From assembly GCF_963921235.1 (NCBI RefSeq), contig NC_086097.1:62622001-62686000 (forward strand): 64,000 bases of DNA. The letters run 5' to 3'. The notes below the pieces were generated by a model. It saw only the letters and a list, made by a program, of their open reading frames with translations. It was not told the origin of the DNA and did no database searches. Shown piece after piece: positions 1,574-64,000 of this stretch. Numbering within the stretch: the first letter of the stretch is position 1; each line of letters starts with the position of its first letter. This stretch comes from Mobula hypostoma. Its lineage: Eukaryota. The position numbers and the translations under genes are program-made.

Positions 1574-2495
1574 TTTCTATGGCGTAACATTAGTAATATA
1601 TAAACAGTATAATAAGCAATGCTGTATTAACACCTTTAATACATGTATGGAATGTGTGGATATTGTAAATGCATTCATGTGGGGTAGAAAAAGAGTTCAT
1701 AGGTAACAATGGAGAACAAAATACTGCCCTATGCATTTCACCTTTGCTCTGCCAATACCTGATCAAGCTGGTATTAGAGGGTATTAACTCTCTCATTTTC
1801 ACATACAGTACCTTTGCCAGAAGACATCTAATTGATATTCCTATATTTCAAAGGGAATTATATACTTGTATGAATATAATACTAAATGCATTATTTCACC
1901 ACACACTCCATGCTATTTGAGAGAGGAGCCTATTCATCCCCCGCTTTGTTATAATCCAAATATTCTCTTTGCTGAAGAGCCAGAACTGCTCTATATCTGA
2001 TCCCTTGAGTACATTCGCTTGGAAATTAAAAATTTAGAAAGTTTGTTTTTAATGTCAACGATCCAACAGGATGGGAGGTCTTTGAGATTCTGCCATAACG
2101 TTCCCCTACTCCTCCCTTTAGACTTCCCGTTTGAGGGCACCTTTACTAAACTTATGTTCATTATCATGACCCCAAAAGATCTGATTACGAGTGAAAGTTC
2201 ATCGTAATTGCACCTTGCAGCAATCATTAAAATAATGGTGTGGTTTTTATTAAGTGCATAACCTAAAACTGTATGTACAAAAAAACCTGATTTTTTTCAA
2301 AATCAAGAATTCATCTTTTTTTTTAAGCTATCATCCTGTGACAACATGAAATAAGGCTGCAGTGGAAAAGTTAAGGAGCTTAACTCTCATCAACATCATA
2401 CATAGAAACATACATAGAAAATAGGTGCAGGAGTAGGCCATTCGGCCCTTCGAGCCTGCACCGCCATTTATTATGATCATGGCTGATCATCCAAC

Positions 2496-5495
2496 TCAGA
2501 ACCCAGCCTTCCCTCCATACCCCCTGACCCCTGTAGCCACAAGGGCCATATCTAACTTCCTTTTAAACATAGCTAATGAACTGGCCTCAACAGTTTGCTG
2601 TGGCAGAGAATTCCACAGATTCACCACTCTCTGTGTGAAGAAGTTTTTCCTAACCTCGGTCCTAAAAGGCTTCCCCTCTATCCTCAAACTGTGACCCCTC
2701 GTTCTAGACCTCCCCAACATCGGGAACAATCTTCCTGCATCTAGCCTGTCCAATCCCTTTAGGATCTTATACGTTTCAATCAGATCCCCCCTCAATCTTC
2801 TAAATTCCAACGAGTACAAGCCCAGTTCATCCAGTCTTTCTTCATATGAAAGACCTGCCATCCCAGGAATCAATCTGGTGAACCTTCTTTGTACTCCCTC
2901 TATGGCAAAGATGTCTTTCCTCAGATTAGGGGACCAAAACTGCACACAATACTCCAGGTGTGGTCTCACCAAGGCCTTGTACAACTGCAGTAGTACCTCC
3001 CTGCTCCTGTACTCGAATCCTCTCGCTATAAATGCCAGCATACCGTTCGCCTTTTTCACCGCCTGCTGTACCTGCATGCCCACTTTCAATGACTGGTGTA
3101 TAATGACACCCAGGTCTCGTTGCACCTCCCCTTTTCCTAATCGGCCACCATTCAGATAATAATCTGTTTTCCTATTTTTGCCACCAAAGTGGATAACTTC
3201 ACATTTATCCACATTAAATTGCATCTGCCATGAGTTTGCCCACTCACCCAACCTATCCAAGTCACCCTGCATCCTCTTAGCATCCTCCTCACTGCTAACA
3301 CTGCCACCCAGCTTCGTGTCATCCGCAAACTTGGAGATGCTGCATTTAATTCCCTCATCCAAGTCATTAATATATATTGTAAACAACTGGGGTCCCAGCA
3401 CTGAGCCTTGCGGTACCCCACTAGTCACCGCCTGCCATTCTGAAAAGGTCCCGTTTATTCCCACTCTTTGCTTACTGTCTGCTAACCAATTCTCCACCCA
3501 CACCAATACCTTACCCCCAATACCGTGTGCTTTAAGTTTGCACACTAATCTCCTATGTGGGACCTTGTCAAAAGCCTTTTGAAAATCCAAATATACCACA
3601 TCCACTGGTTCTCCCCTATCCACTCTACTAGTTACATCCTCAAAAAATTCTATGAGATTCGTCAGACATGATTTTCCTTTCACAAATCCATGCTGACTTT
3701 GTCCGATCATTTCACCGCTTTCCAAATGTGCTGTTATCACATCCTTGATAACTGACTCCAGCAGTTTCCCCACCACCGACGTTAGGCTAACCGGCCTATA
3801 ATTCCCCGGTTTCTCTCTCCCTCCTTTTTTAAAAAGTGGGGTTACATTAGCCACCCTCCAATCCTCAGGAACTAGTCCAGAATCTAACGAGTTTTGAAAA
3901 ATTATCACTAATGCATCCACTATTTCTTGGGCCACTTCCTTAAGCACTCTGGGATGCAGACCATCTGGCCCTGGGGATTTATCTGCCTTCAATCCCTTCA
4001 ATTTACCTAACACCACTTCCCTACTAACATGTATTTCGCTCAGTTCCTCCATCTCACTGGACCCTCTGTCCCTTACTATTTCTGGAAGATTATTTATGTC
4101 CTCCTTAGTGAAGACAGAACCAAAGTAATTATTCAATTGGTCTGCCATGTCCTTGCTCCCCATAATCAATTCACCTGTTTCTGTTTGCAGGGGACCTACA
4201 TTTGTCTTTATCAGTCTTTTCCTTTTTACATATCTATAAAAGCTTTTACAGTCCGTTTTTATGTTCTCTGCCAGTTTTCTCTCATAATCTTTTTTCCCCT
4301 TCCTAATTAAGCCCTTTGTCCTCCTCTGCTGAACTCTGAATTTCTCCCAGTCCTCAGGTGAGCCACTTTCTCTGGCTAATTTGTATGCTACTTCTTTGGA
4401 ATTGATGCTATCCCTAATTTCTCTTGTCAGCCACGGGTGCACTACCTTCCTTGATTTATTCTTTTGCCAAACTGGGATGAACAATTGTTGTAGTTCATCC
4501 ATGCAACCTTTAAATGCCTGCCATTGCATATCCACCGTCAATCCTTGAAGTGTCATTTGCCAGTCTATCTTAGCTAATTCATGTCTCATACCTTCAAAGT
4601 TACCCCTCTTTAAGTTCAGAACCTTTGTTTCTGAATTAACTACGTCACTCTCCATGTTAATGAAGAATTCCACCATATTATGGTCACTCTTACCCAAGGG
4701 GCCTCTCACGACAAGATCGCTAATTAACCCTTCCTCATTGCTCAAAACCCAGTCCAGAATAGCCTGCTCTCTAGTCGGTTCCTCGACATGTTGGTTCAAA
4801 AAACCATCCCGCATACATTCCAAGAAATCCTCTTCCTCAGCACCTTTACCAATTTGGTTCACCCAGTCTACATGTAGATTGAAGTCACCCATTATAACTG
4901 CTGTTCCTTTATTGCACACATTTCTAATTTCCTGTTTAATACCATCTCCGACCTCACTACTACTGTTAGGTGGCCTGTACACAACTCCCACCAGCGTCTT
5001 CTGCCCCTTAGTGTTACGCAGCTCTACCCATATCGATTCCACATCTTCCCGGCTTATGTCCTTCCTTTCTATTGCGTTAATCTCTTTTTTAACCAGCAAC
5101 GCCACCCCACCTCCCCTTCCTTCGTGTCTATCCCTCCTGAATATTGAATATCCCTGAACGTTGAGCTCCCATCCCTGGTCACCCTGGAGCCATGTCTCTG
5201 TGATCCCAACTATATCATAATCATTAATAACAATCTGCACTTTCAATTCATCCACCTTATTACGAATGCTCCTTGCATTGACACATAAAGCCTTTAGGCA
5301 CTCTTTTACAACTCTCTTAGCCCTTTTTAATGCTTGCCCTGGATTTGTCGGCCTGCCACTTTTACTTTTCCCCTTTGTACTTTTTGCTTCTACGCTCACT
5401 TTACACCCCTCTGTCTCTCTGCACTGGTTCCCATCCCTCTGTTGTGAACTAACCTCCTCACACCTAGCCGCTTTAATTTGATTCCCACCCCCCAA
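2496..5495 (-). CDS. CR1 ORF2: APE endonuclease + reverse transcriptase (uninterrupted; no AUG before the APE domain)
   Basis: APE motifs NARS, ITETW, GVVYRPP, MGDFN, LDWVL, SDH; RT motifs NYRPVSLTS, YLDFQKAFD, GVPQGSVLGP, FADD; CR1 C-terminus VRPHLEYCVQFWSP. Confidence 0.95.
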   Translation of the reverse strand: MGGGNQIKAARCEEVSSQQRDGNQCRETEGCKVSVEAKSTKGKSKSGRPTNPGQALKRAKRVVKECLKALCVNARSIRNKVDELKVQIVINDYDIVGITETWLQGDQGWELNVQGYSIFRRDRHEGRGGGVALLVKKEINAIERKDISREDVESIWVELRNTKGQKTLVGVVYRPPNSSSEVGDGIKQEIRNVCNKGTAVIMGDFNLHVDWVNQIGKGAEEEDFLECMRDGFLNQHVEEPTREQAILDWVLSNEEGLISDLVVRGPLGKSDHNMVEFFINMESDVVNSETKVLNLKRGNFEGMRHELAKIDWQMTLQGLTVDMQWQAFKGCMDELQQLFIPVWQKNKSRKVVHPWLTREIRDSINSKEVAYKLARESGSPEDWEKFRVQQRRTKGLIRKGKKDYERKLAENIKTDCKSFYRYVKRKRLIKTNVGPLQTETGELIMGSKDMADQLNNYFGSVFTKEDINNLPEIVRDRGSSEMEELSEIHVSREVVLGKLKGLKADKSPGPDGLHPRVLKEVAQEIVDALVIIFQNSLDSGLVPEDWRVANVTPLFKKGGREKPGNYRPVSLTSVVGKLLESVIKDVITAHLESGEMIGQSQHGFVKGKSCLTNLIEFFEDVTSRVDRGEPVDVVYLDFQKAFDKVPHRRLVCKLKAHGIGGKVLVWVENWLADSKQRVGINGTFSEWQAVTSGVPQGSVLGPQLFTIYINDLDEGIKCSISKFADDTKLGGSVSSEEDAKRMQGDLDRLGEWANSWQMQFNVDKCEVIHFGGKNRKTDYYLNGGRLGKGEVQRDLGVIIHQSLKVGMQVQQAVKKANGMLAFIARGFEYRSREVLLQLYKALVRPHLEYCVQFWSPNLRKDIFAIEGVQRRFTRLIPGMAGLSYEERLDELGLYSLEFRRLRGDLIETYKILKGLDRLDAGRLFPMLGRSRTRGHSLRIEGKPFRTEVRKNFFTQRVVNLWNSLPQQTVEASSLAMFKRKLDMALVATGVRGYGGKAGF

Positions 5496-5500
5496 CCATT

Positions 5501-6436
5501 CTAGTTTAAAGTCACCTCAGTAGCCCCCGCTAATCTCCCTGCCAGGATATTGGTCCCCCGAGGATTTAAGTGTAACCCGTCCTTTTTGTACAGGTCACAC
5601 CTGCGCCAAAAGAGGTCCCAATGATCCAAAAACTTGAATCCCTGCCCCCTGCTCCAATCCCTCAGCCACGCATTTATCCTCCACCTCATCGCATTCCTAC
5701 TCTCACTGTCGCGTGGCACAGGCAGTAATCCCGAGATTACTACCTTTGCGGTCCTTTTTCTCAACTCCCTTCCTAGCTCCCTATATTCTTCTTTCAGGAC
5801 CTCATCCCTTTTCCTACCTATGTCATTGGTACCTATATGTACCAGGACCTCTGGCTCTTCACCCTCCCACTTCAGGATATCTTGGACACGATCAGAAATA
5901 TCCCGGACCCTGGCACCAGGGAGGCAAACTACCATCCGAGTCTCTGGACTGCGTCCACAGAATCGCCTATCTGACCCCCTTACTATCGAGTCCCCTATCA
6001 CAACTGCCCTCCTCTTCCTTGCCCTACCCTTCTGAGCTACAGGGCCAGACTCTGTGCCGGAGGCAGGGCCACTGTCGCTTCCCCCGGGTAAGCTGTCCCC
6101 CCCAACAGTACTCAAACAGGAGTACCTGTTGTTAAGGGGCACAGCCGCCGGGGTACTCCCCATCACCTTCCTTTTCCCCTTCCCCCTCCTAACCGTGACC
6201 CACTTGTCTGCCTCCCGTGGCCCCGGCGTGACCACCTGCCTTCCACTCCTCTCTATCACCTCCTCACTCTCCCTGACCAGACGAAGGTCATCGAGCTGCA
6301 GCTCCAGTTCCGTAACGCGGTCCCTTAGGAGCTGCATCTCGATGCACTTGGCGCAGATGTAGACGTCCGGGAGGCTTGGAGACTCCAGGGCCTCCCACAT
6401 CCGACACCGAGAACAGCAAACTGCCCTCACAGTCAT
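5501..6436 (-). CDS. CR1 ORF1: zinc finger/leucine zipper + SGNH (GDSL) esterase-like domain, 311 aa from the first ATG
   Basis: CSRC...CAKC, then heptad leucines, then IGDS, PGAR, HIGTND and DGLHLN esterase blocks. ATG at 6436 (the ORF track starts at an upstream GTG). Confidence 0.9.
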   Translation of the reverse strand: MTVRAVCCSRCRMWEALESPSLPDVYICAKCIEMQLLRDRVTELELQLDDLRLVRESEEVIERSGRQVVTPGPREADKWVTVRRGKGKRKVMGSTPAAVPLNNRYSCLSTVGGDSLPGGSDSGPASGTESGPVAQKGRARKRRAVVIGDSIVRGSDRRFCGRSPETRMVVCLPGARVRDISDRVQDILKWEGEEPEVLVHIGTNDIGRKRDEVLKEEYRELGRELRKRTAKVVISGLLPVPRDSESRNAMRWRINAWLRDWSRGQGFKFLDHWDLFWRRCDLYKKDGLHLNPRGTNILAGRLAGATEVTLN

Positions 6437-6601: not shown

Positions 6602-7097
6602 TTTTAAATCTGCCGCGCTGCACTGCCCTACGTCACACGCCTGCGCAGTCCCGCCTCTCAGAAAGCCGTTGGAGAAAAAAAAATAACGAAAATTTCAAAA
6701 ATCTCTTTTTCGGCACTCCCACTCAGACTCTCAGACTCCTTCTTCGAATCAAATCCGAAGCAGGATGTCTGCCCTTTTAAATCTGCCGCGCTGCACTGCC
6801 CGACGTCACACGCCTGCGCAGTCCCGCCTCTCAGAAAGCCGTTGGAGAAAAAAAAATAACGAAAATTTCAAAAATCTCTTTTTCGGCACTCCCACTCAGA
6901 CTCTCAGACTCCTTCTTCGAATCAAATCCGAAGCAGGATGTCTGCCCTTTTAAATCTGCCGCGCTGCACTGCCCGACGTCACACGCCTGCGCAGTCCCGC
7001 CTCTCAGAAAGCCGTTGGAGAAAAAAAAATAACGAAAATTTCAAAAATCTCTTTTTCGGCACTCCCACTCAGACTCTCAGACTCCTTCTTCGAATCA
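6602..7097 (-). repeat. About 2.9 tandem copies of a 173-bp CpG-rich monomer forming the CR1 5' end
   Basis: Units start at 6602, 6775 and 6948, are almost identical, and the third is truncated at 7097. Confidence 0.95.
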
Positions 7098-32755: not shown

Positions 32756-32818
32756 TATCAGGAACATCTAACCTTCAGAATCCATAGTTTTAAAGTTGGC
32801 AGAACCGGGTGAATTGGG

Positions 32819-33614
32819 TCTCCACCGCATCTGCTCTCAGGATGAGGCTTTTCATTCCAGGATGAGGGAAATGTCCTCCTTTTTTAAAGAAAGGGGCTTC
32901 ACTTCCTACACCATCAACTCTGCTCTCAAACGCATCTCCCCCATTTCACGCACATCTGCTCTCACCCCATTCTCCCATCACCCCACTAGGAATAGGATTC
33001 CCCTGGTCCTCACCTACCACCCCACCAGCCTCCGGGTACAACATATAATTCTCCGTAACTTCCGCCACCTCCAATGGGATCCCACCACGAAGCACATCTT
33101 TCCCTTCTCCCCTCTCTCTGCTTTCCACAGGGATCGCTCCCTACGCGACTCCCTTGTCCATTCGTCCCCCCCATCCCTCCCCACTGATCTCCCTCCTGGC
33201 ACTTATCCTTGTAAGCAGAACAAGTGCTACACCTGCCCTTACACTTCCTCCCTTACCACCATTCAGGGCCCCAGACAGTCCTTCCAGGTGAGGGGACACT
33301 TCACCTGTGAGTCGGCTGGGGCGATGTACTGCGTCCGGTGCTCCCGGTGTGCCCTTCTATACATTGGTGAGACACAACGCAGACTGGGAGATCATTTCAC
33401 TGAACACCTACGCTCTGTCCGCCAGAGAAAGCAGGATCTCCCAGTGGCCACACATTTTAATTCCACGTCACATTCCCATTCTGATATGTCTATCCACGGC
33501 CTCCTCTACTGTAAAGATAAAGCCACACTCAGGTTGGAGGAACAACACCTTATATTCCGTCTGGGTAGCCTCCAACCTGATAGCATGAACATTGACTTCT
33601 CAAACTTCCGCTAA
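32819..33614 (+). pseudogene. Penelope-like ORF remnant (RT thumb/linker + GIY-YIG), open but 5'-truncated
   Basis: ORF track 32796-33614; the first residues come from flanking DNA. Confidence 0.85.
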
Positions 33615-35038: not shown

Positions 35039-37727
35039 AATAGAAAGGAAGGACATTAGCCGGGAAGATGTGGAATCAATATGGGTAGAGCTGCATAACA
35101 CTAAGGGGCAGAAAACGCTGGTGGGAGTTGTGTACAGGCCACCTAACGGTAGTAGTGAAGTTGGGGATGGTATTAAACAGGAAATTAGAAATGTGTGCAA
35201 TAAAGGAACAGCAGTTATAATGGGTGACTTCAATCTACATGTAGATTGGGTGAACCAAATTGGTAAAGGTGCTGAGGAAGAGGATTTCTTGGAATGTATG
35301 CGGGATGGTTTTTTGAACCAACATGTCGAGGAACCAACTAGAGAGCAGGCTATTCTAGACTGGGTTTTGAGCAATAAGGAAGGGTTAATTAGCAATCTTG
35401 TCATGAGAGGCCCCTTGGGTAAGAGTGACCATAATATGGTGGAATTCTTCATTAAGATGGAGAGTGACATAGTTAATTCAGAAACAAAAGTTCTGAACTT
35501 AAAGAGGGGTAACGTTGAAGGTATGAGACGTGAATTAGCTAAGATAGACTGGCAAATGACACTTAAAGGATTGACGGTGGATATACAATGGCAAGCATTT
35601 AAAGATTGCATGGATGAACTACAACAATTGTTCATCCCAGTTTGGCAAAAGAATAAATCAAGGAAGGTAGTGCACCCGTGGCTGACAAGAGAAATTAGGG
35701 ATAGTATCAATTCCAAAGAAGAAGCATACAAATTAGCCAGAAAAAGTGGCTCACCTGAGGACTGGGAGAAATTCAGAGTTCAGCAGAGGAGGACAAAGGG
35801 CTTAATTAGGAAGGGGAAAAAAGATTATGAGAGAAAACTGGCAGGGAACATAAAAACTGACTGTAAAAGCTTTTATAGATATGTAAAAAGGAAAAGACTG
35901 GGAAAGACAAATGTAGGTCCCCTACAGACAGAAACAAGTGAATTGATTATGGGGAGCAAGGACATGGCAGACCAATTGAATAATTACTTTGGTTCTGTCT
36001 TCACTAAGGAGGACATAAATAATCTTCTGGAAATAGTAGGGGACAGAGGGTCCAGTGAGATGGAGGAACTGAGCGAAATACATGTTAGTAGGGAAGTGGT
36101 GTTAGGTAAATTGAAGGGATTAAAGGCAGATAAATCCCCAGGGCCAGATGGTCTGCATCCCAGAGTGCTTAAGGAAGTAGCCCAAGAAATAGTGGATGCA
36201 TTAGTGATGAATTTTCAAAACTCGTTAGATTCTGGACTAGTTCCTGAGGATTGGAGGGTGGCTAATGTAACCCCACTTTTTAAAAAAGGAGGGAGAGAGA
36301 AACCGGGGAATTATAGACCGGTTAGCCTAACGTCGGTGGTGGGGAAACTGCTGGAGTCAGTTATCAAAGATGTGATAACAGCACATTTGGAAAGCTGTGA
36401 AATCATCGGACAAAGTCAGCATGGATTTGTGAAAGGAAAATCATGTCTGACGAATCTCATAGAATTTTTTGAGGATGTAACTAGTAGAGTGGATAGGGGA
36501 GAACCAGTGGATGTGGTATATTTGGATTTTCAAAAGGCTTTTGACAAGGTCCCACACAGGAGATTAGTGTGCAAACTTAAAGCACACGGTATTGGGGGTA
36601 AGGTATTGATGTGGATAGAGAATTGGTTAGCAGACAGGAAGCAAAGAGTGGGAATAAACGGGACATTTTCAGAATGGCAGGCAGTGACTAGTGGGGTACC
36701 GCAAGGCTCAGTGCTGGGACCCCAGTTGTTTACAATATATATTAATGACTTGGATGAGGGAATTAAATGCAGCATCTCCAAGTTTGCGGATGACACGAAG
36801 CTGGGTGGCAGTGTTAGCTGTGAGGAGGATGCTAAGAGGATGCAGGGTGACTTGGATAGGTTAGGTGAGTGGGCAAATTCATGGCAGATGCAATTTAATG
36901 TGGATAAATGTGAAGTTATCTACTTTGGTGGCAAAAACAGGAAAACAGATTATTATCTGAATGGTGGCCGATTAGGAAAAGGGGAGGTGCAACAAGACCT
37001 GGGTGTCATTATACACCAGTCATTGAAAGTGAGCATGCAGGTACAGCAGGCGGTGAAAAAGGCGAATGGTATGCTGGCATTTATAGTGAGAGGATTCGAG
37101 TACAGGAGCAGGGAGGTACTACTGCAGTTGTACAAGGCCTTGGTGAGACCACACCTGGAGTATTGTGTGCAGTTTTGGTCCCCTAATCTGAGGAAAGACA
37201 TCCTTGCCATAGAGGGAGTACAAAGAAGGTTCACCAGATTGATTCCTGGGATGGCAGGACTTTCATATGAAGAAAGACTGGATGAACTAGGCTTGTACTC
37301 GTTGGAATTTAGAAGACTGAGGGGGGATCTGATTGAAACGTATAAAATCCTAAAGGGATTGGACAGGCTAGATGCAGGAAGATTGTTCCCGATGTTGGGG
37401 AAGTCCAGAACAAGGGGCCACAGTTTGAGGATAAAGGCGAAGCCTTTTAGGACTGAGATTAGGAAAAACTTCTTCACACAGAGAGTGGTGAATCTGTGGA
37501 ATTCTCTGCCACAGGAAACAGTTGAGGCCAGTTCATTGGCTATATTTAAGAGGGAGTTAGATATGGCCCTTGTGGCTAAAGGGATCGGGGGTATGGAGAG
37601 AAGGCAGGTACAGGGTTCTGAGTTGGATGATCAGCCATGATCATACTGAATGGCGGTGCAGGCTCGAAGGGCCGAATGGCCTACTCCTGCACCTATTTTC
37701 TATGTTTCTATGTTTTCTATGTTTCTA
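35039..37727 (+). mobile_element. 5'-truncated young CR1 (mid-APE to tail), ORF2 open except for a terminal frameshift
   Basis: 856-aa ORF near-identical to 2496-5495; (TTTCTATG)n tail at about 37697-37727. Confidence 0.95.
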
Positions 37728-43521: not shown

Positions 43522-43731
43522 GATCTGATCATGTGCAATTGCCATTGATTTACAGAATTCTCTAAAAACTAACACATGTCCCTGAAGGACATCCTGGTCC
43601 TGAGCTTTGACAGGGGTCTTAACCCAATCTGTGTCCTCTGAGAAGAGGACCCCCACAAAAGCTATGATGAATCTAAGGGAAAGATACCCCCAGGGTGCCC
43701 AAGACGGGGGGAGGAAGAGCACCCCAGTCGG

Positions 43732-46700
43732 ATGGACACAACGACATCAGACCTAGTAAATGAACAAATGACGATGAGGGAGCAGTGTGCATGTGGTAAA
43801 ATCTGCAAGAACGATTACGGCTTGAAGATCCACCAAGCGAGGATGAAGTGTTTGATGGGAGCAGGAGCAGCACAACGCGCAGTTGTCCAACCTGGTGAGA
43901 TGAAGGAGGGGCCAGGCCCAGAGTCACCCCATAGTGCCCAGAACCTCCAAGTGTTACAAGCTAATCCCTCTAACATGAAGTCTAACAGGAGTCGGATCAA
44001 ATGCCTTGCAGCTAACATGACTTCACTGCGGAAGCAGTTTGATGAAGATGTTAACCAAATTCTGGAGGCAACAGTGAAGGGAGGAGTTGATAGGAAGCTG
44101 CAAGCCATGACAACAATTATTGTCAGTATCGCAGCTGAACGGTTCGGAGGAGAGGAGAAGGAGGACTCCAAAACATCTTACTCGAAGAACCAAAGAGCAT
44201 TGAGGATCCACAACATCAGGCAGGAGATGAAAGCGCTGAAGTCCTATTACGAGGAGGCAGGAGAAGAGGAGCGCATTGGCTTGGCCCAGCTGATGTGCAT
44301 TCTATGAAAGAAGATCAGGGTCCTCTGCTGGGCAGAGTGGCATCGGAGGCGGCGTCGTGAAAGGGCTCGAAAACGTGCTGCCTTTATCGCCAACCCCTTC
44401 AAGTTCACCAAGGAGTTGCTGGGGGAGAAGCGCAGTGGGAAACTGGCCTGTTCGCAGGAAGACATAGACCAACATCTGAAGAAGATATATAATGATCCTG
44501 AAAGAGAGCAGGAGTTGGGAGAGTGCGACATCCTAATAGACCCACCCGAACCAGATGTGCAGTTCGAGATGTCAGAGCTGCAACTAAAGGAAGTCAGAGA
44601 GGTTGTCCGCAAAGCAAGGGCAAGCTCGGCTCCCGGACCAAGCAACACCTCGTATACAGTGTACAAGAACTGCCCCAAACTCCTGCTGCATCTGTGGAAG
44701 ATCCTGAGAATCTTCTAGAGAAGGGGGAAGATCCCAGAACAGTGGAGAGTGGCTGAAGGGGTGTGGATCCCGAAGGAGGAAAATGCCACCCAGATAGATC
44801 AGTTTGGCATCATCTCCCTGCTGTGTGTCGAGGCGAAGATCTTCTTCAGTGCCGTTTCTAATCGGCTGTGCACCTACCTGGCAAAGAACACCTATATTGA
44901 TACATCAGTCCAGAAGGGTGGCATTTCAGGGATGTCAGCTGTCTGGAGCACATCAGTGTGGTGACACAGCTCATCAGGGAGGCCAGAGAGAACAAGGGCA
45001 ACCTGTCAGTGTTGTGGCTCGACCTGGCAAATGTATATGGCTCCATTCCGCACAAGCTGGTGCAGCTCACACTGATCAAATATCACATCCCCAGCAGAAT
45101 CAGAGACCTTATCGCTGATTATTACAGCAACTTCATGATGAGGGTCTCCTCAGGAGCAATTACATCAACTTGGCACAAGGTGGAGGTCGGCATCATCACA
45201 GGGTGCACTATCTCAGTGACACTGTTCTCCCTAGCCATGAACATGCTCACTAAGTCTGCTGAACCAGAGTGCAGAGGACCCAGAATGAATTCCGCTCAAC
45301 GGCAACCACCTATCAGGGCATTCATGGATGACCTCACAGTCACCACAGAATCAGTCCCAGGCTGCCGGAGGATTCTGTAAGGGCTTGAAAAGCTGGTGGA
45401 GTGGGCCCGGATGCATTTCAAACCCGCCAAATCAAGATCGATGATGCTGAGGAAAGGGAAGGTGGAGAACAAGTTTCGGTTCAGCATCACAGGCACAGCC
45501 ATCCCAACCATCACAGAAAAGCCAGTCAAGAGCTTAGGCAAAGTTTTTGACAGCTCTTTAAGGGACACAACATCCTTTCGGGCAACCTGCACCGAGTTGG
45601 ATGGCTGGCTGAGATCTGTGGACAAATCTGGCCTACCTGGGAAGTTTAAAGCCTGGGTGTATCAGCATGGCATTCTTCCCAGAATCCTGTGGCCCCTCCT
45701 TGTCTATGCAGTTCCGATCTCGACAGTCAAAACCTTAGAGAGGAGGGTTAGCAACCACCTCAGGAGATGGCTGGGGCTGCCAAAGAGTCTGAGCAGCATC
45801 GCACTTTATGAACACCACAACAAACTGCAACTGCCCTTCAAATCCTTGGGGGAGGAATTCAAGGTAACAAGTGCCAGGGAAGTGATACAGTCTAGGGACT
45901 CAAGTGACCCGAAGGTGGCTAGAGCAGGACTCCAAGTGAGGACTGGCAGGATGTGAAGGGCAGAGGAAGCTGTTCAGGAGGCAGAGGCAAGGCTGTGTCA
46001 CAGGAGGCTGGTGGGAGTGGTCACACAAGGCAAAGCTGGGCTAGGATCCTTTCCAACTCCCCAAATGGACACTAGAGGGAAGGAAAGGTGTCGTCTAGTT
46101 CAGGAGGAGGTGAGAGCAGTAGAGGAGGAGACGAGAGCCTGCAAGGCATGGGAATGAAGCAACAGGGAGCTTGGACAAGATGGGAGAATGCGGTTGAGAG
46201 GAAAGTAACTTGGGCTGAACTTTGGAAAGCCAAACCACGCCACATCCAATTTCTCATCCGGGCAGTGTACGATGTGCGTCCAAGCCCATCAAACCTGTTC
46301 ACATAGGGCAAGGCAGAGTCATCTGCATGCCCACTGTGCTCCAAGAGAGGAACCCTGGAGCACATCTCAGCAGCTGTGCAAGGGCACTTGGTGAGGGACG
46401 GTACAGGTGGAGGCATGATCAGGTCCTGAAGACCATCGCTGAAGCCGTCAGTGTAGGAGTTGAGTGGGCGAAGCGGTCCCGACCCTCCAAGCAGACCATT
46501 GCCTTTGTCAGAGCCGGGGAGCAGCCAATACCCGCCAAAAGAACGTCTGCAGGCATCCTGACCTCTGCAAGGGACTGGCAGCTGTTGGTGGACCTCGAAC
46601 GGCAGCGGAAGTTCCCCAACCATATCGCAGCCACCACCCTATGACCAGACATTGTCCTATTGTCTGAGTCTACTAAGCAAGTGGTGCTGCTGGAGCTGAC

Positions 46701-54269: not shown

Positions 54270-56480
54270 CTGCACTCTTCCCAATGGAATCTCCACATCC
54301 ACTCTATTTAGACCTTTCTATATTCAATAGGTTTCAATAAGTTACCTCATCATTCTTCTGAATGCCAGTGAGTACTGGCCTAATGCCGTCAAGCGCTCTC
54401 CTAATGTAAACCTGTTCCTTACCAGAATCGTTCTTGTAAATCTCCTCTTGGCCCTCTCCAGTGCCAACACATCTTTTCTTAGATAAGGGGCCCAATATTC
54501 CTCACAATACTCCAGCTGCAGTCTGACCAATGCCTTTAAAGCCTCAGCATTATGACCCTGCTTTTATAGTCTACTCCTATTGAAATGAATGTTAATATTG
54601 CATTTGCCTTCCTCACCACCAACACAACTTGCAAAATAAACTTTAGGGAATAGAAACATAGAAACATAGAAAATAGGTGCAGGAGTAGGCCATTCGGCCC
54701 TTTGAGCCTGCACCGCCATTTATTATGACCATGGCTGGTCATCCAACTCAGAACCCCGCCCCAGCCTTCCCTCCATACCCCCTGACCCCCGTAGCCACAA
54801 GGGCCATATCTAACTCCCTCTTAAATATAGCCAATGAACTGGCCTCAACAGTTTCTTGTGGCAGAGAATTCCACAGATTCACCACTCTCTGTGTGAAGAA
54901 GTTTTTCCTAATCTCGGTCCTAAAAGGCTTCCCCTCTATCCTCAAACTGTGGCCCCTCGTTCTGGACTTCCTCAACATCGGGAACAATCTTCCTGCATCT
55001 AGCCTGTCCAATCCCTTTAGGATCTTATACGTTTCAATCAGATCCCCCCTCAATCTTCTAAATTCCAACAAGTACAAGCCCAGTTCATCCAGTCTTTCTT
55101 CATATGAAAGTCCTGCCATCCCAGGAATCAATCTGGTGAACCTTCTTTGTACTCCCTCTATGGCAAAGATGTCTTTCCTCAGATTAGGGGACCAAAACTG
55201 CACACAATACTCCAGGTGTGGTCTCACCAAGGCCTTGTACAACTGCAGTAGTACCTCCCTGCTCCTGTACTCGAATCCTCTCGCTATAAATGCCAGCATA
55301 CCATTCACCTTTTTCACCGCCTGCTGTACCTGCATGCCCACTTTCAATGACTGGTGTATAATGACACCCAGGTCTCGTTGCACCTCCCCTTTTCCTAATC
55401 AGCCACCATTCAGATAATAATCTGTTTTCCTATTTTTGCCACCAAAGTGGATAACTTCACATTTATTCACATTAAATTGCATCTGCCATGAATTTGCCCA
55501 CTCACCCAACCTATCCAAGTCCCCCTGCATCCTCTTAGCATCCTCCTCACTGCTAACACTGCCACCCAGCTTCGTGTCATCCGCAAACTTGGAGATGCTG
55601 CATTTAATTCCCTCATCCAAGTCATTAATATATATTGTAAACAACTGGGGTCCCAGCACTGAGCCTTGCGGTACCCCACTAGTCACCGCCTGCCATTCTG
55701 AAAAGGTCCCGTTTATTCCCACTCTTTGCTTCCTGTCTGCTAACCCCTGATTTCTGAATTGTTTCCCCATTTATTCTTCTACCAAAGTGCATGACCATAC
55801 ACTTCAAACACTATATTCCATCTGCCACTTCATTGTGCATTCTCCTAATCTGTTTTAGTCTTTCTGCAGGCTTCCTGCTTCCTCAGCACTCCATGCCCCT
55901 CCTCCTATCTACAAACTTGTCATCCAAGTCATTGACGTATAATGTGAAAAGAAGCAGTCCCAATACCAACCCCTGCAGAACATCACTAGTTACCAGCAAC
56001 TAACCGGAAAAGTCCCCCTTTATTTCCACTCTCTGCCTCCTGCTGGTCACCTTGCCTGGTATTTCCTCAAAAATTCCCAACAGATTTATCAGGCAGGATA
56101 TCCCTTTAATGAATCCATGCTGACTTTGGCCTATTTTACCACGCACAACCAAATGCTCCAAAACTTCATCTTTAATAACAGATTCCAACATCTTCTCAAC
56201 CACCGAAGTCAGGCTAACTGGCCTCTAATTTCCTTTCTTTTGCCTCCTCCCTTCTTAAAGAGTGGATAGATATTTGCAGTTTTCCAGTTCTCCAGGACCA
56301 TTTCACTATCTGCTGATTCATAAAAGATCACTACAAATGCCTCCACAATCTGTTCAGCCACCTCTTTCAGAACTCTGGCGTGTAGTCCATCTGGTCCAAG
56401 TGACTTATCTAATTTCAGAACTTTCAGCATCCCAAGCATCTTCTCCTTAGTAATAGCAACTACACTCACTTCTGCCTGCT
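54270..56480 (-). mobile_element. Older CR1 remnant interrupted by a young CR1
   Basis: VRLQLEYCEEYWAPYLRKD on one side; KSLGPDGLHARVLKEVAE and GQSQHGF on the other. Confidence 0.8.
54651..55745 (-). mobile_element. 5'-truncated young CR1 (RT C-terminal half + tail)
   Basis: Near-identical to 2401-3487; one CGA>TGA stop at 55399-55401. Confidence 0.95.
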
Positions 56481-58518: not shown

Positions 58519-60912
58519 CATAGTCATAGCCATAGTCATAGTCATAGTCATACTTTATTGATCCCGGGGGAAATTGGTTTCCGTTACAGTTGCACCATAA
58601 ATAATTAAATAGTAATAAAACCATAAATAATTAAATAGTAATATGTAAATTATGCCAGGAAATAAGTCCAGGACCAGCCTATTGGCTCAGGGTGTCTGAC
58701 CCTCCAAGGGAGGAGTTGTAAAGTTTGATGGCCACAGGCAGGAATGACTTCCTATGACGCTCTGTATTGCATCTCGGTGGAATGAGTCTCTGGCTGAATG
58801 TACTCCTGTGCCCAACCAGTACATTATGTAGTGGATGGGAGACATTGTCCAAGATGGCATGCAACTTGGACAGTATCCTCTTTTCAGACACCACTGTCAG
58901 AGAGTCCAGTTCCATCCTCACAACATCACTGGCCTTACAAATGAGTTTGTTGATTCTATTGGTGTCTGCTACCCTCAGCCTGCTGCCCCAGCACACAAAA
59001 CAGCAAACATGATCACACTGGCCACCACAGACTCGTAGAACATCCTCAGCATCGCCCGGCAGATGTTAAAGGACCTCAGTCTCCTCAGGAAATAGAGATG
59101 GCTCTGACCCTTCTTGTAGACAGCCTCAGTGTTCTTTGACCAGTCCAGTTTATTGTCAATTCATATCCCCAAGTATTTGTAATCCTCCACCATGTCCACA
59201 CTGACCCCCTGGATGGAAACAGGGGTCACCGGTTCCTAATCTCTCCTCAGGTCTACCACCAGCTCCTTAGTTTTTTTCACATTAAGCTGCAGATAATTCT
59301 GCTCACACCATGTGACAAAGTTTCCTACCGTAGCCCTGTACTCATCCTCATCTCCCCTCTGATGCATCCAACTATGGCAGAGTCATCAGAAAGCTTCTGA
59401 AGATGACAAGACTCTGTGCAGTAGTTGAAGTCCGAGGTGTAAATGGTGAAGAGAAAGGGAGACAAGACAGTCCCCTGTAGAGCCCCAGTGCTGCTGATCA
59501 CTCTGTCGGACACACAGTGTTGCAAGCACACGTACTGTGGTCTGCCAGTCAGGTATTCAAGAATTCATGACACCAGGAAAGCATCCACCTGCATCACTGT
59601 CAGCTTCACCCCCAGCAGAGCAGGGCGGATGGTGTTGAACGCACTGGAGAAGTCAAAAAACCTGACCCTCACAGTGCTCGCTGGCTTGTCCAGGTGGGCG
59701 TAGACACGATTCAGCAGGTAGATGATGGCATCCTCAACTCCTAGTTGGGGCTGGTAGACGAACTGGAGGGGATCTAAGTGTGGCTTGAACATTGGCCAAA
59801 GCAGCTTCAGAACAAGTCTCTCCAGGGTCTTCATGATGTGGGAGGTCAATGCCACCGGTCTGTAGTCATTGAGGCCGCTGGGGCATGCCATCTTTGGCAC
59901 AGGGACGAGGCAGGACGTCTTCCACAGCACAGGAGCCCTCCGGAGCCTCAGGCTCAGGTTGAAGACATGGTGAAGTACTCCATATAGCTGAGGGGCACAG
60001 GCTTTGAGCACCCTGGTACTGACACCATCCGGTCCTGCAGCCTTGCTTGGGTTGAGACGTTTCAGCTGTCTTCTCACCTGTAGAGCTGTGAAGCCCACCG
60101 TGCTGATTTCATGTGGGGAAGGGGTATAGTCATGAGAGTAAGGTGGGGGTCTGTGAGGAGGGGTAGGAGGGGAGAGTGGAATATGTGTTGGTTGGGGGCC
60201 AACAACAGATGACTCATGTGGGGGATGGGCAGGAGCCAAAATGTCAAATCTTTTAAAGAACAGGTTAAGTTCTTTGGCCCTGTCCACAGTGCCTTCAGCT
60301 CCTCTGTTGTTAGTTTTCCAAAACCTAGTGATGGTCCTCATCCCATTCCAGACCTCTCTCATGTTGTTCTGCTGGAGTTTCCACTCAAGCTTCCTCCTGT
60401 ACCTGTCTTTAGCCTCCCTGATCCTGGCTTTCAGGTCTCTCTGTATTGCCCTCAGCTCCTCCCTATTTCCATTTCTAAATGTCCTCTTTTTAACGTTCAG
60501 GATGTCCTTAATGTCCTTTGTCACCCATGGCTTGTTATTTGAATAACAAAGGACAGTTCTTGTCGGAACATTGCAGTCCACACAGAAGTTGATGTAATCA
60601 GTGATGCACTCTGTGAGCCCATCAATATCCTCTCCATGTGGCTCACAGAGCGCCTGCCAGTCTGTCACCTCAAAACAACCCTGGAGCACCTCAGAAACCT
60701 CCTCCGACCATTTCCTCACTGTCCTCGAGGTTGCAGGTTTACTCTTCACCAGAGGCACGTAGCAGGGTTTTAGATGCACCAGGTTGTGATCTGACCTTCC
60801 CAACGGGGGGAGGGGAGAGGAGCTGTATGCATCCTTAATGTTAGCGTACATCAAATCCAGAGTCCTCTTCCCTCTAGTTGTACAGCTCACATACTGCGTG
60901 AAGTTGGGCAGT
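58519..60912 (-). mobile_element. 5'-truncated Rex1/Babar-type LINE with (ACTATG)n tail
   Basis: APE end (TLDLMY, GRSDH); KAAGPDG, DYRPVALTS, FFDFSSAFNTI, GALQGTVLSP, LSDD; several stops; (CATAGT)n at 58519-58552. Confidence 0.9.
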
Positions 60913-61109
60913 AGGACGCACATTCAAGCTTTCAAACCAAATGGGCAGAAGAGTGGCTGAAGAGGTTTAACAGAAAAGTGGGAAATGTTATGCTTGCCAG
61001 AATAAGGAGAGTTACAATCTAATATGAATAAGCAACAACAGAGCGATCTGGGAGTATACATGCACATATCTTAGAAAACGATAGGGCATATTGAAAGTGA
61101 GGTTGTGTC

Positions 61110-61829
61110 CAAAGCTTCAATGTCCATTTAGGAACTGGATGGCAGAGGGAAAGAAGCTGTTTCTGAATCGCTGATTGCGTGCCTTCAGGCTTCTGTATCT
61201 CCTACCTGATGGCAACAGTGATAAAAAGACGTGCCCTGGGTGCTGGAGGTCCTTAATAATGGACGCTGCCTTTCTGAGTCACTGCTCCCTAAAGATGTCC
61301 TGGGTACTTTGTAGGCTAGAACCCAAGATGCAGCTGACTAGATTTACAACCCTCTACAGCTTTTTGCGGTCCTGTGCAGTAGCCCCTTACCAGACAGTGA
61401 TGCAGTCTGTCAGAATGCTCTCCACGGTACAACTATAGAAGTTTTTGAGTGCATTTGTTGACATGCCAAATCTCTTCAAACTCCTAATAAAGTATAGCCG
61501 CGGTCTTGCCTGCTTCATAACTAAATCAATATTTTGGGACCAGGTTAGATCCTCAGAGATCTTGACACCCAGGAACTTGAAGCTGCTCACCCTCTCCACT
61601 TCTGATCCCTCTATGAGGATTGATATGTGCTCCTTCGTCTTACCCTTCCTGAAGTCCACAATCAGTTCTTTCGTCTTACTGATGTTGAGTGCCAGGTTGT
61701 TGCTGCAGCACCACTCCACTAGTTGGTGTATCACACTCCTGTACGCCCTCTCGTCACCACCTGAGATTCTATGAACAATAATAGTTGTAACGTCAGCAAA
61801 TTTATGGATGGTGTTTGAGCTATGCCTAG
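61110..61829 (-). mobile_element. Rex1/Babar-like fragment cut by the Gypsy insertion
   Basis: HKFADVTTI...KTKELIVDFRK...FKFLGVKISEDLTW. Confidence 0.85.
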
Positions 61830-62684
61830 TGTTACGAGAATACACATAAAATTAAGATGTTTGCTGGCCTGGGCTAGCATCAGTGGCATCAGCAGTTGGT
61901 CTGCCACCTGCCCTCAGGGGAAGGAGAGATAAGGAACAATGGAGCAGCGTCTGGAGATGTGTAATGAAGGGATGTGGGAGGAAGAGCTGTCTGGAGCGGC
62001 TCCCCCCTTTGAGCCCTGAACTGTTTGAAGTGATGGACAGGCGATACCCCAGCAGGGGGATAAAAAGGGACAGGTTCGCTAAGACAGACACACACGCCAC
62101 CCGAGGTAACGAGACCCTGGAAGCGGTGCGCTTCTCACGAGTGGGTGAGAAGTCCCAGACAACGACAAGGGTGGAAAGGTACGATCAGCGGGAACCCGGT
62201 GTGTGTCCGCCCTTGCCTGGGTGCCGGGTTCACTGCAGAGGATCGACCGCATCTGGAGGAGGGGTCACAGTCGGTGACCTCAGGTGACATCACCAAGGAC
62301 CTGCCCAAAAGCTGTTTGTGAGCCATCCCGCTGGTCTGTGAGTGAAGCTGCGCTGAATGATGAGTTGTTCTCTCTGTCTCTCTTCCCCCACCTTGTCCAT
62401 CGCCATGGCAACGATTACTGCGAACTGAACTGCAAACTGGACTGAACTTTGAGTCATTTTGAAATTGGTCATTTACCCCTAGACAACGATAGAGCTTGAT
62501 TGATGCTGTTATCTTAATTCTGTGCACATGTGTGGTTATCATTGTTGAATTGTTGCATTTATTATCCTTTCGATTACTGTGTTGCTTGTTTCTTTAATAA
62601 AACTTTCTTAGTTCTAGTACTCCAGACTCCAACTGAGTGATCCATTTCTGCTGGTTTGGCAACCCAGTTACGGGGTACGTAACA
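61830..62684 (+). mobile_element. 5' LTR (855 bp) of a Gmr1-like Gypsy retrotransposon
   Basis: TGTTACG...CGTAACA termini, GATAAAAA TATA-like box at about 62059, AATAAA at 62596, followed by the primer-binding site and gag. Confidence 0.9.
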
Positions 62685-62708: not shown

Positions 62709-62783
62709 TTGAACGCTAAATTTGGGACGGAGTAAATTGATTGGGTTAAAATTCCCGAAAGAAAGAAAAGACAAACAGCAGAA

Positions 62784-64000
62784 ATGGAGGTTGAGGAATT
62801 TATAAAGGCGCCGACCTTGGAGGCATTAGAGGATGCCAGGAAATCGGAATTGATAGCTGTGGCAAAACGGGTGAATCTTGCTAAGGTGAAGTCGACAATG
62901 AGGAGAGAGGAGATACACAGAGCTATTGTAGAGCACTATGTATCTAAAGGTGTGTTTCCCCAAGGTGAGCTGGGGGAGGTGTCTATTGAAAAACCTGCTG
63001 GAGACGCGGTACAGGTACAGCTTGAAAAACTGAGACTCGAGCACGAGTTCCGGGTACGGCAGTTAGAAAGGCAGGAGAAAGAGAGAGAGTTAGAAAGGCA
63101 GGAGAAAGAGAGAGAGTTAGAAAGGCAGGAGAAAGAGAGAGAGTTAGAAAGGCGGGAGAGAGAGAAAGAGGTAGAAAGGCAAGAGAGAGAAAGACAGTTG
63201 GAGAGAGAAGAGAGAGAGAGGGACAGACAGTTGGAGAGAGAAGAGAGAGAGAGGGACAGACAGTTGGAGAGAGAGGAGAAACAGAGGGAAAGGGAATTTG
63301 AGCTGGAGAAGTTAAAGATAAGGGCCGAGCAGGGGCTCGTGCCGAACCAAGGTGGAGGGTTCCGGGCGACCCAGGAGGTTAGGCTGGTTCCCCCTTTTGA
63401 CGATACCGATGTGGATCGGTACTTTCTCCACTTCGAAAAAGTAGCTATAAGTCAGGACTGGCCGAGGGATAAGTGGGTTGTTTTACTTCAGAGTGTACTG
63501 AAAGGGAAAGCCCAACAAGCTTACTCCGCTTTATCCCCGGAAGATGCCCAGAAGTATGAGGTGGTGAAGGAGGCCATCCTCAGGACTTATGAGTTGGTCC
63601 CGGAGGCATACCGGCAGAGGTTCCGGAATGCGAGGAAGCGGTGGGACCGCACGTATTTGGAGTTTGCTCGTGAGATGCAAACATATTGTGAGCGTTGGTG
63701 CGCCTCGTAAGGGGTAGAGGGGGATTACGACAGACTGCTGCAACTGGTTCTGATTGAGCAGTTTAAAGGTTGTGTCCCTGAGGGTATGAGACCCTACCTC
63801 GATGAGAAAGAGGCAGCCACGTTAGCCGCAACTGCTAAGTTAGCGGATGAGTATGCGTTGACGCATAAAATGAAGGTTGCCCCGAGTAAAGGCTACCAGA
63901 AGGGTAGTCAGGACGGCGGGGAGAGTCCGCCGGAAAAGTCAGAAAGTAAGCCGGGGACTAGTGAAAAGGATAAGGTAGACCGGGAGCAATCTGGTAGGAA
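62784..64000 (+). pseudogene. gag: Gmr1-like gag (coiled coil + capsid with SCAN-like domain), in-frame TAA at 63708-63710, continues past the window end
   Basis: VPPFDDTDVDRYFLHFEKVA..WP..LLQSVLKGKAQ..YELVPEAYRQRFR; after the stop, in the same frame, LLQLVLIEQFKGCVP..YLDEK..AKLADEY. Confidence 0.85.

Follow-up and report, generated by a model that had tools for sequence, protein, structure and literature searches.

How the second open reading frame (ORF2) of long interspersed nuclear elements (LINEs) is translated is treated as an open question in reviews, which list reinitiation, internal ribosome entry sites and 2A skipping (PMC2881922, PMC3894237, PMC3708506). Two routes have been tested, UAAUG coupling in SART1 and reinitiation in L1, and both depend on the translation of ORF1 (PMC2881922). 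A −1 frameshift is said to be needed for ORF2 of Dictyostelium TRE5-A and TRE3-A, which are also LINEs of the APE type (PMC5911963), and a +1 frameshift has been suggested for Paramecium elements. The sole case outside the long terminal repeat (LTR) elements that we met in the sections used of a 2016 review is the gag frameshift of Drosophila HeT-A (PMC5009743). Here we describe the junction between ORF1 and ORF2 of a CR1-clade LINE from the ray Mobula hypostoma, located on the minus strand of a stretch of 64,000 nucleotides (nt) of contig NC_086097.1 (positions 62,622,001 to 62,686,000; the whole stretch is referred to as the window, and coordinates are positions within it). The junction carries a slippery heptamer, U-UUA-AAC, on which a fraction of the ribosomes probably performs programmed −1 frameshifting to yield a minor ORF1p-ORF2p fusion of 1,313 amino acids. 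We assign this reading a probability of about 0.8, and the comparative support for the junction as a conserved feature is strong.

On the minus strand ORF1 ends at 5512-5501 with ACT TTA AAC TAG, and re-reading of the sequence bears out a preliminary description in which T-TTA-AAC was placed at 5510-5504 in exact X-XXY-YYZ phase. It is the sole in-phase canonical heptamer within ORF1. The probability that a given position of this element holds a canonical heptamer of any kind is 0.002, a figure that applies to one position, and the decisive support comes from conservation. ORF2 lies in the −1 frame, as had been described, and is open from 5516. The 77 codons of this frame that separate the heptamer from the first APE motif contain 0 stops, the other two frames having 5 and 7. 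The first AUG of ORF2, at 4892, is indeed situated inside the APE domain, so that a start there would remove most of the endonuclease. Its residue number, previously given as 202, becomes 209 when counted from 5516, the lower number matching a count from the TTG at 5495. Two further details, an out-of-frame AUG at 5499 that opens only 8 codons and a G-rich tract following the stop, were found as described, and the fusion estimated at about 1,310 residues has a computed length of 1,313, its production remaining a prediction. The junction thus shows the canonical signs of −1 frameshifting, namely an in-phase heptamer, a −1 frame that is open from the site without a usable start, and conservation beyond coding need.

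Distant DNA relatives were gathered by alignment of the APE region. The 80 best of 268 metagenome matches, together with all 26 matches in genomes, made up 106 loci, mostly 28-45% identical. Of these, 36 had an APE anchor as well as the end of an esterase ORF1 and were dereplicated to 24 representatives; the others were missing one of the two or had a different ORF1. An in-phase canonical heptamer occupies the last two codon slots of ORF1 in 34 of the 36 loci and in 22 of the 24 representatives, compared to a background of 22 in-phase heptamers in 5845 slots within the same ORF1s. The 22 heptamers comprise 9 of the kind U-UUA-AAC (one doubled with U-UUU-UUA), 12 of the kind U-UUU-UUA and 1 A-AAA-AAG. 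When the encoded peptides are taken as granted, synonymous codon choice predicts 4.3 heptamers. On a tree of the APE region, which was built with no named reference elements (CR1, L2, Rex1), the kinds are interleaved, L069 for example standing among U-UUU-UUA elements. Since the kind varies while the position is constant and the kinds are interleaved, the peptide is not the thing conserved. The phase is −1 in 21 of the 24 representatives. Among 21 loci with the site and the −1 phase (L007 replacing the broken L089), there are 0 stops in the 860 codons from the site to the first AUG or the APE domain, where 113 are expected, and upstream of the site the frame is open by a median of 7 codons only (neutral expectation 7.6). 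No in-frame AUG precedes the APE domain in 9 of the 24 representatives, nor in the window element.

Close DNA relatives were examined by aligning the contigs of four sequencing runs to 5330-5730 (15,534, 14,816, 1 and 41 records). None of the 40 variant rows listed, beside which there are 59 further rows, falls within 5482-5513. Three loose ends of diverged subfamilies on the minus strand keep T-TTA-AA despite different preceding codons. In one loose end a TAA overlaps an AUG in the ORF2 frame (UAAUG) and the linker is shorter; this end matches the protein P0294, which starts MWQGDG. RNA-marked runs containing the region were set aside as evidence of transcription, because contigs cannot show transcription.

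At the protein level, 259 ORF1 matches were obtained, 173 of them complete at the C terminus. The end Leu-Asn-stop is found in 136 of these 173 homologues, from rays to birds (102/107 in the top score band, 21/37 and 13/29 in the lower bands), the named sources being rays, sharks, coelacanth, frogs, turtles, lizards, a snake, a hummingbird, an eel and a sturgeon-labelled record. The −1 phase and an in-phase heptamer, conservation of which had been proposed as a check, are largely kept across relatives. The residue before Leu has 13 identities, and its codon is compatible with a final T in 134 of 136 cases; as a test on its own this bias is modest, because nearby hydrophobic positions, which likewise lack M, W, K, Q and E, show the same bias. 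Several gene models cross the junction in the −1 frame, reading F-K-L in Hypanus (P0036, P0121), in P0055 and in painted turtle (P0145), and V-K-L in the frog Ranitomeya. Pairing such models with 0-frame proteins solves the junction codons except for the last base, which can be C or T: the two-frame solution forces Leu to be TTA and the base before it to be T (G in the frog, whose pair fits over 25 codons), giving T-TTA-AAY in the rays and painted turtle and G-TTA-AAY in the frog. In the Hypanus sabinus models P0036 and P0121, ORF1 runs in frame into the endonuclease and the frame changes at a G run just before the site; these models are either natural fused copies or artefacts.

We infer slippage, its rate, its stimulator and its purpose from these features. 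Most ribosomes would terminate at the UAG and release the 311-amino acid ORF1p. In a minority, tRNA-Leu and tRNA-Asn would slip back on U-UUA-AAC by one base, and these ribosomes would read on through the linker, the APE endonuclease and the reverse transcriptase (RT) to give the 1,313-amino acid fusion, as in Gag-Pol. This would set the ratio of ORF1p to RT and tether RT into ORF1p multimers.

The stimulator may be a hairpin in many relatives and, in the window element, the G run at +11 and/or the adjacent stop. In 12 loci of the U-UUU-UUA group a hairpin of 9-10 base pairs follows the site, with 88% of cells paired and two-sided changes in 6 of 10 pairs; 0 of 500 shuffles attained its covariation score, which also lies above all slid controls, but the loci were hand-chosen from 15 and the structure was drawn from the same sequences, which favours the hairpin. 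The G6 run recurs with the same length and +11 offset in L003, L005 and L007, which belong to a separate lineage on the tree, and the Gly that the ray, turtle and frog readings have at the corresponding place is consistent with this run, although the run could merely encode a Gly-rich linker. A weak two-tier quadruplex (−5.5 kcal/mol) is predicted as the minimum in the window; three other segments of the element score higher, and in L003, L005 and L007 the single G6 run is kept while the quadruplex is not. Natural quadruplex stimulators were not known according to the pertinent section of the 2016 review (PMC5009743). Long-range pairing between the G tract and the 3' untranslated region (UTR) was rejected, as its duplex energy of −21 kcal/mol lies within the shuffle range and relatives have no consistent partner. 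Searches against Rfam families gave no match.

Several observations weigh against frameshifting. No stable hairpin was found downstream of the heptamer in the window (fold z-score +0.9), and only 10 of 22 relatives reach a downstream fold z-score of −2.3 or lower. The core hairpin and the G run begin 11-12 nt past the site, the typical spacing between site and stimulator being 5-9 nt. The frog site departs from the canonical form in its first base, and vertebrate DNA beyond the cartilaginous fish was assessed through proteins only. The loci are related, so that the counts are not independent events, and the zero-stop count was taken on loci already classed as −1 phase. Two representatives have no heptamer, L075, where an in-frame AUG lies 5 nt past the stop, and L006, in the +1 phase; L034 and L089 retain the heptamer but not the −1 phase and look like broken copies. 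According to the preliminary description, another phase or an in-frame AUG in the family would have told against frameshifting. Phase and heptamer are as predicted in 21 and 22 of the 24 distant junctions, but an in-frame AUG does occur close to the stop in the sister subfamily with UAAUG and in 3 of the 24 representatives.

These AUGs lend some weight to an unlikely alternative, namely that ribosomes terminate and restart near the ORF1 stop to make free ORF2p, either at an AUG as in SART1 or at a non-AUG codon (TTG at 5495) as in L1, aided by the hairpin or G tract. An AUG that overlaps the ORF1 stop in the ORF2 frame is absent from the window element and present in the sister subfamily represented by P0294. 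In-frame AUGs within 5 nt of the stop are found in the representatives L011, L031 and L075 and in the non-representative L072. SART1 requires a downstream structure (PMC3894237, PMC3708506), and L1 tolerates loss of its ORF2 AUG (PMC1965478). Reinitiation, however, predicts neither an in-phase heptamer of three interchangeable kinds, nor a fixed −1 phase, nor a frame that opens just upstream of the site; the window element and the 9 representatives without an in-frame AUG before the APE domain do not fit an AUG restart, and the phase fixed in 21 of 24 representatives speaks against AUG-independent restart of the L1 type. Still less probable is mixed use, with frameshifting ancestral, some lineages adding or switching to AUG reinitiation, and the shift in the window perhaps weak and driven by the stop codon instead of a dedicated stimulator. 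L011, L031, L072 and the UAAUG subfamily do combine a heptamer with an AUG, an AUG without a heptamer is seen in L075, and the window lacks a hairpin, yet the window element has no AUG option and the AUGs in the linkers of relatives are scattered from −4 to +242.

We regard as very improbable, and as largely refuted, the idea that Leu-Asn is required as the C terminus of ORF1p, or arises by chance, the heptamer being a by-product of codon choice. Leu and Asn are nearly invariant in vertebrate ORF1, and the residues missing before Leu are missing from nearby hydrophobic positions as well, but relatives ending in F-L-x, F-L or K-K still have an in-phase heptamer, and the 22 heptamers seen far exceed the 4.3 expected with the peptides granted. 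Protein constraint also gives ORF2 no route to expression. Transcriptional slippage was set aside because TTTAAAC contains no long homopolymer.

Frameshifting at this heptamer would be a known mechanism in a new setting, a large clade for which we found no report. No paper proposing it for CR1 was found among the matches listed from the open-licence literature, a scope outside which lie the original chicken, turtle and Repbase descriptions of CR1 and the SART1 paper. The 1997 chicken and turtle CR1 papers, known to us from citations, may discuss the overlap, and an earlier passing proposal is possible. The word frameshift is absent from PMC4120745 and PMC3905857, and the junction motif had no match in six supplements of PMC7140322, a keyword search of its text also being without a match. 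TRE5-A and TRE3-A differ in being amoebal and in having another ORF1 and a zinc finger in ORF2, whereas here a canonical heptamer is traced across animal CR1s. In HeT-A the frameshift is internal to a gag-like gene of an element without RT. The window element differs from SART1 and L1 in lacking an AUG close to the stop and in its conserved in-phase heptamer, which predicts a fusion, not free ORF2p. The closest likeness is to retroviral, LTR and nidovirus sites: U_UUA_AAC ranks with the heptamers on which mammalian ribosomes shift most readily, equine arteritis virus provides a known G_UU(A) variant (PMC5009743), and the same ten bases as at the window junction are present in a bovine leukemia virus pol primer (PMC11346035). 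In contrast to these systems, CR1 belongs to the non-LTR elements of a host and lacks a protease that could cleave the fusion, no hairpin is predicted in the window, and the spacer in CR1 relatives is 8-12 nt. We take the bovine leukemia virus match to be its pro-pol shift site; U_UUU_UUA followed by a hairpin is of the HIV-1 type.

More tentatively, and slightly short of probable in our judgement, −1 frameshifting may be a general and ancient route to RT expression in two-ORF LINEs of the CR1 clade across animals. It would use at least three, perhaps five, interchangeable heptamers (also G-GGA-AAC and A-AAA-AAC) and deliver RT as an uncleaved Gag-Pol-like fusion; the vertebrate branch might have a structure-free stimulator with G6 fixed at +11, maybe acting via a bound protein, the ribosome entry channel or a quadruplex.

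Further observations concern the wider set of relatives. Esterase ORF1s ending in Q-G-N-stop (8 proteins: P0116, P0185, P0186, P0204, P0213, P0219, P0220, P0233), F-F-x-stop (4 proteins: P0115, P0119, P0232, P0183) and S-K-N-stop (P0199) could, as read from the proteins, be encoded by G-GGA-AAC, U-UUU-UUY and A-AAA-AAC. CR1-like elements without the esterase ORF1 (L027, L033, L035, L036, L037, L039, L058, L060, L064) have longer −1 overlaps of 61-202 nt with weak downstream hairpins, and G-GGA-AAC and A-AAA-AAC heptamers were seen in non-esterase elements. In PMC4120745 the esterase type of ORF1 was found in vertebrate subgroups only. Here, esterase ORF1s are present in L003, L009, L015 and L024, CR1-like loci from environmental metagenomes whose APE region is 34-40% identical to the query and which fall outside the vertebrate group on the tree. 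CR1 copies also lie within prokaryote genome records, with 16 loci in one Metamycoplasmataceae metagenome-assembled genome and others in Aeromonas, Labedella and further records (the L082-L095 group, L100, L102, L104, L106; L081, L096-L099, L103); these are likely contamination by animal DNA. The ORF1 and ORF2 queries gave no match in viral contigs, plasmids, the first metagenome scan or the first genome scan.

The element itself is a young, intact CR1-clade LINE of a ray (Table 1). Its ORF2 combines APE and RT, and its ORF1 carries an SGNH esterase (ORF1 type IV) whose best match of solved structure is the ORF1 esterase of ZfL2-1 (PDB 4C1B, E 5e-42); the same esterase fold is known from CR1 subgroup 7, ORF1 type IV (PMC4120745). 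The match stops at profile position 320 of 324, and Leu-Asn therefore lies past the matched domain. The 3' end is a short tandem repeat and not poly(A), 5'-truncated copies exist (in the window at 35039-37722 and 54650-55745, 96-97% identical), and a protein named from Mobula hypostoma is the nearest match (99%). With the element ends tried, no target-site duplication was detected. The tandem 5' UTR resembles monomeric LINE promoters. Within the linker, 5433-5503 on the minus strand holds two similar G-rich motifs, G-G-G-N-Q and R-D-G-N-Q. In the sister subfamily the heptamer runs directly into the second motif, which makes this linker about 57 nt shorter while the −1 phase is retained, and the extra motif of the window lineage therefore probably arose by local duplication. 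Other decayed mobile elements lie at 32772-33614, 43642-45956, 59565-61851 and 62736-63710; they include two broken RT-bearing LINEs (RVT_1 matches) and what we take, from their motifs and with no Pfam match, to be a Penelope-like GIY-YIG frame and a Gypsy gag-like frame.

Table 1. Features of the CR1 element and its ORF1-ORF2 junction, in window positions.
Feature	Position	Strand	Remarks
5' UTR	6602..7097	−	173-bp tandem unit, 2.9 copies, 99% alike
ORF1, 311 amino acids	5501..6436	−	ATG at 6436; N-terminal Cys motif and coiled coil predicted from sequence; C-terminal SGNH/GDSL esterase
Slippery heptamer T-TTA-AAC	5504..5510	−	X-XXY-YYZ phase with ORF1; conserved or replaced by other heptamers in relatives
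ORF1 stop TAG	5501..5503	−	Immediately 3' of heptamer
G-rich tract, candidate stimulator	5479..5498	−	G6 run at 5493-5488, starting 11 nt after heptamer
Out-of-frame AUG, 8-codon mini-ORF	5473..5499	−	Probably incidental
Open linker, heptamer to first APE motif (NARS)	5280..5503	−	0 in-frame stops
ORF2, 1006 amino acids stop to stop	2496..5516	−	APE endonuclease and RT; −1 frame relative to ORF1
First in-frame ORF2 AUG	4890..4892	−	Met of MGDFN motif within APE domain
3' UTR, short tandem tail	2397..2495	−	12-bp unit x2 at 2397-2420

In birds and reptiles the main repeat is CR1, which makes up 11.8% of the chicken model chromosomes. With a defined 7-base switch, the question of LINE ORF2 translation becomes directly testable, and a fused ORF1p-RT protein is predicted. 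A Gag-like membrane role has been proposed for esterase ORF1p (PMC3905857), and frameshifting, if true, would extend this analogy. It would also correct the annotation of ORF2, which gene callers begin at arbitrary internal Met residues, and in the design of CR1 retrotransposition assays the junction is best left intact. Finally, it would add many natural frameshift cassettes, including a possible unstructured stimulator in the form of a G run.

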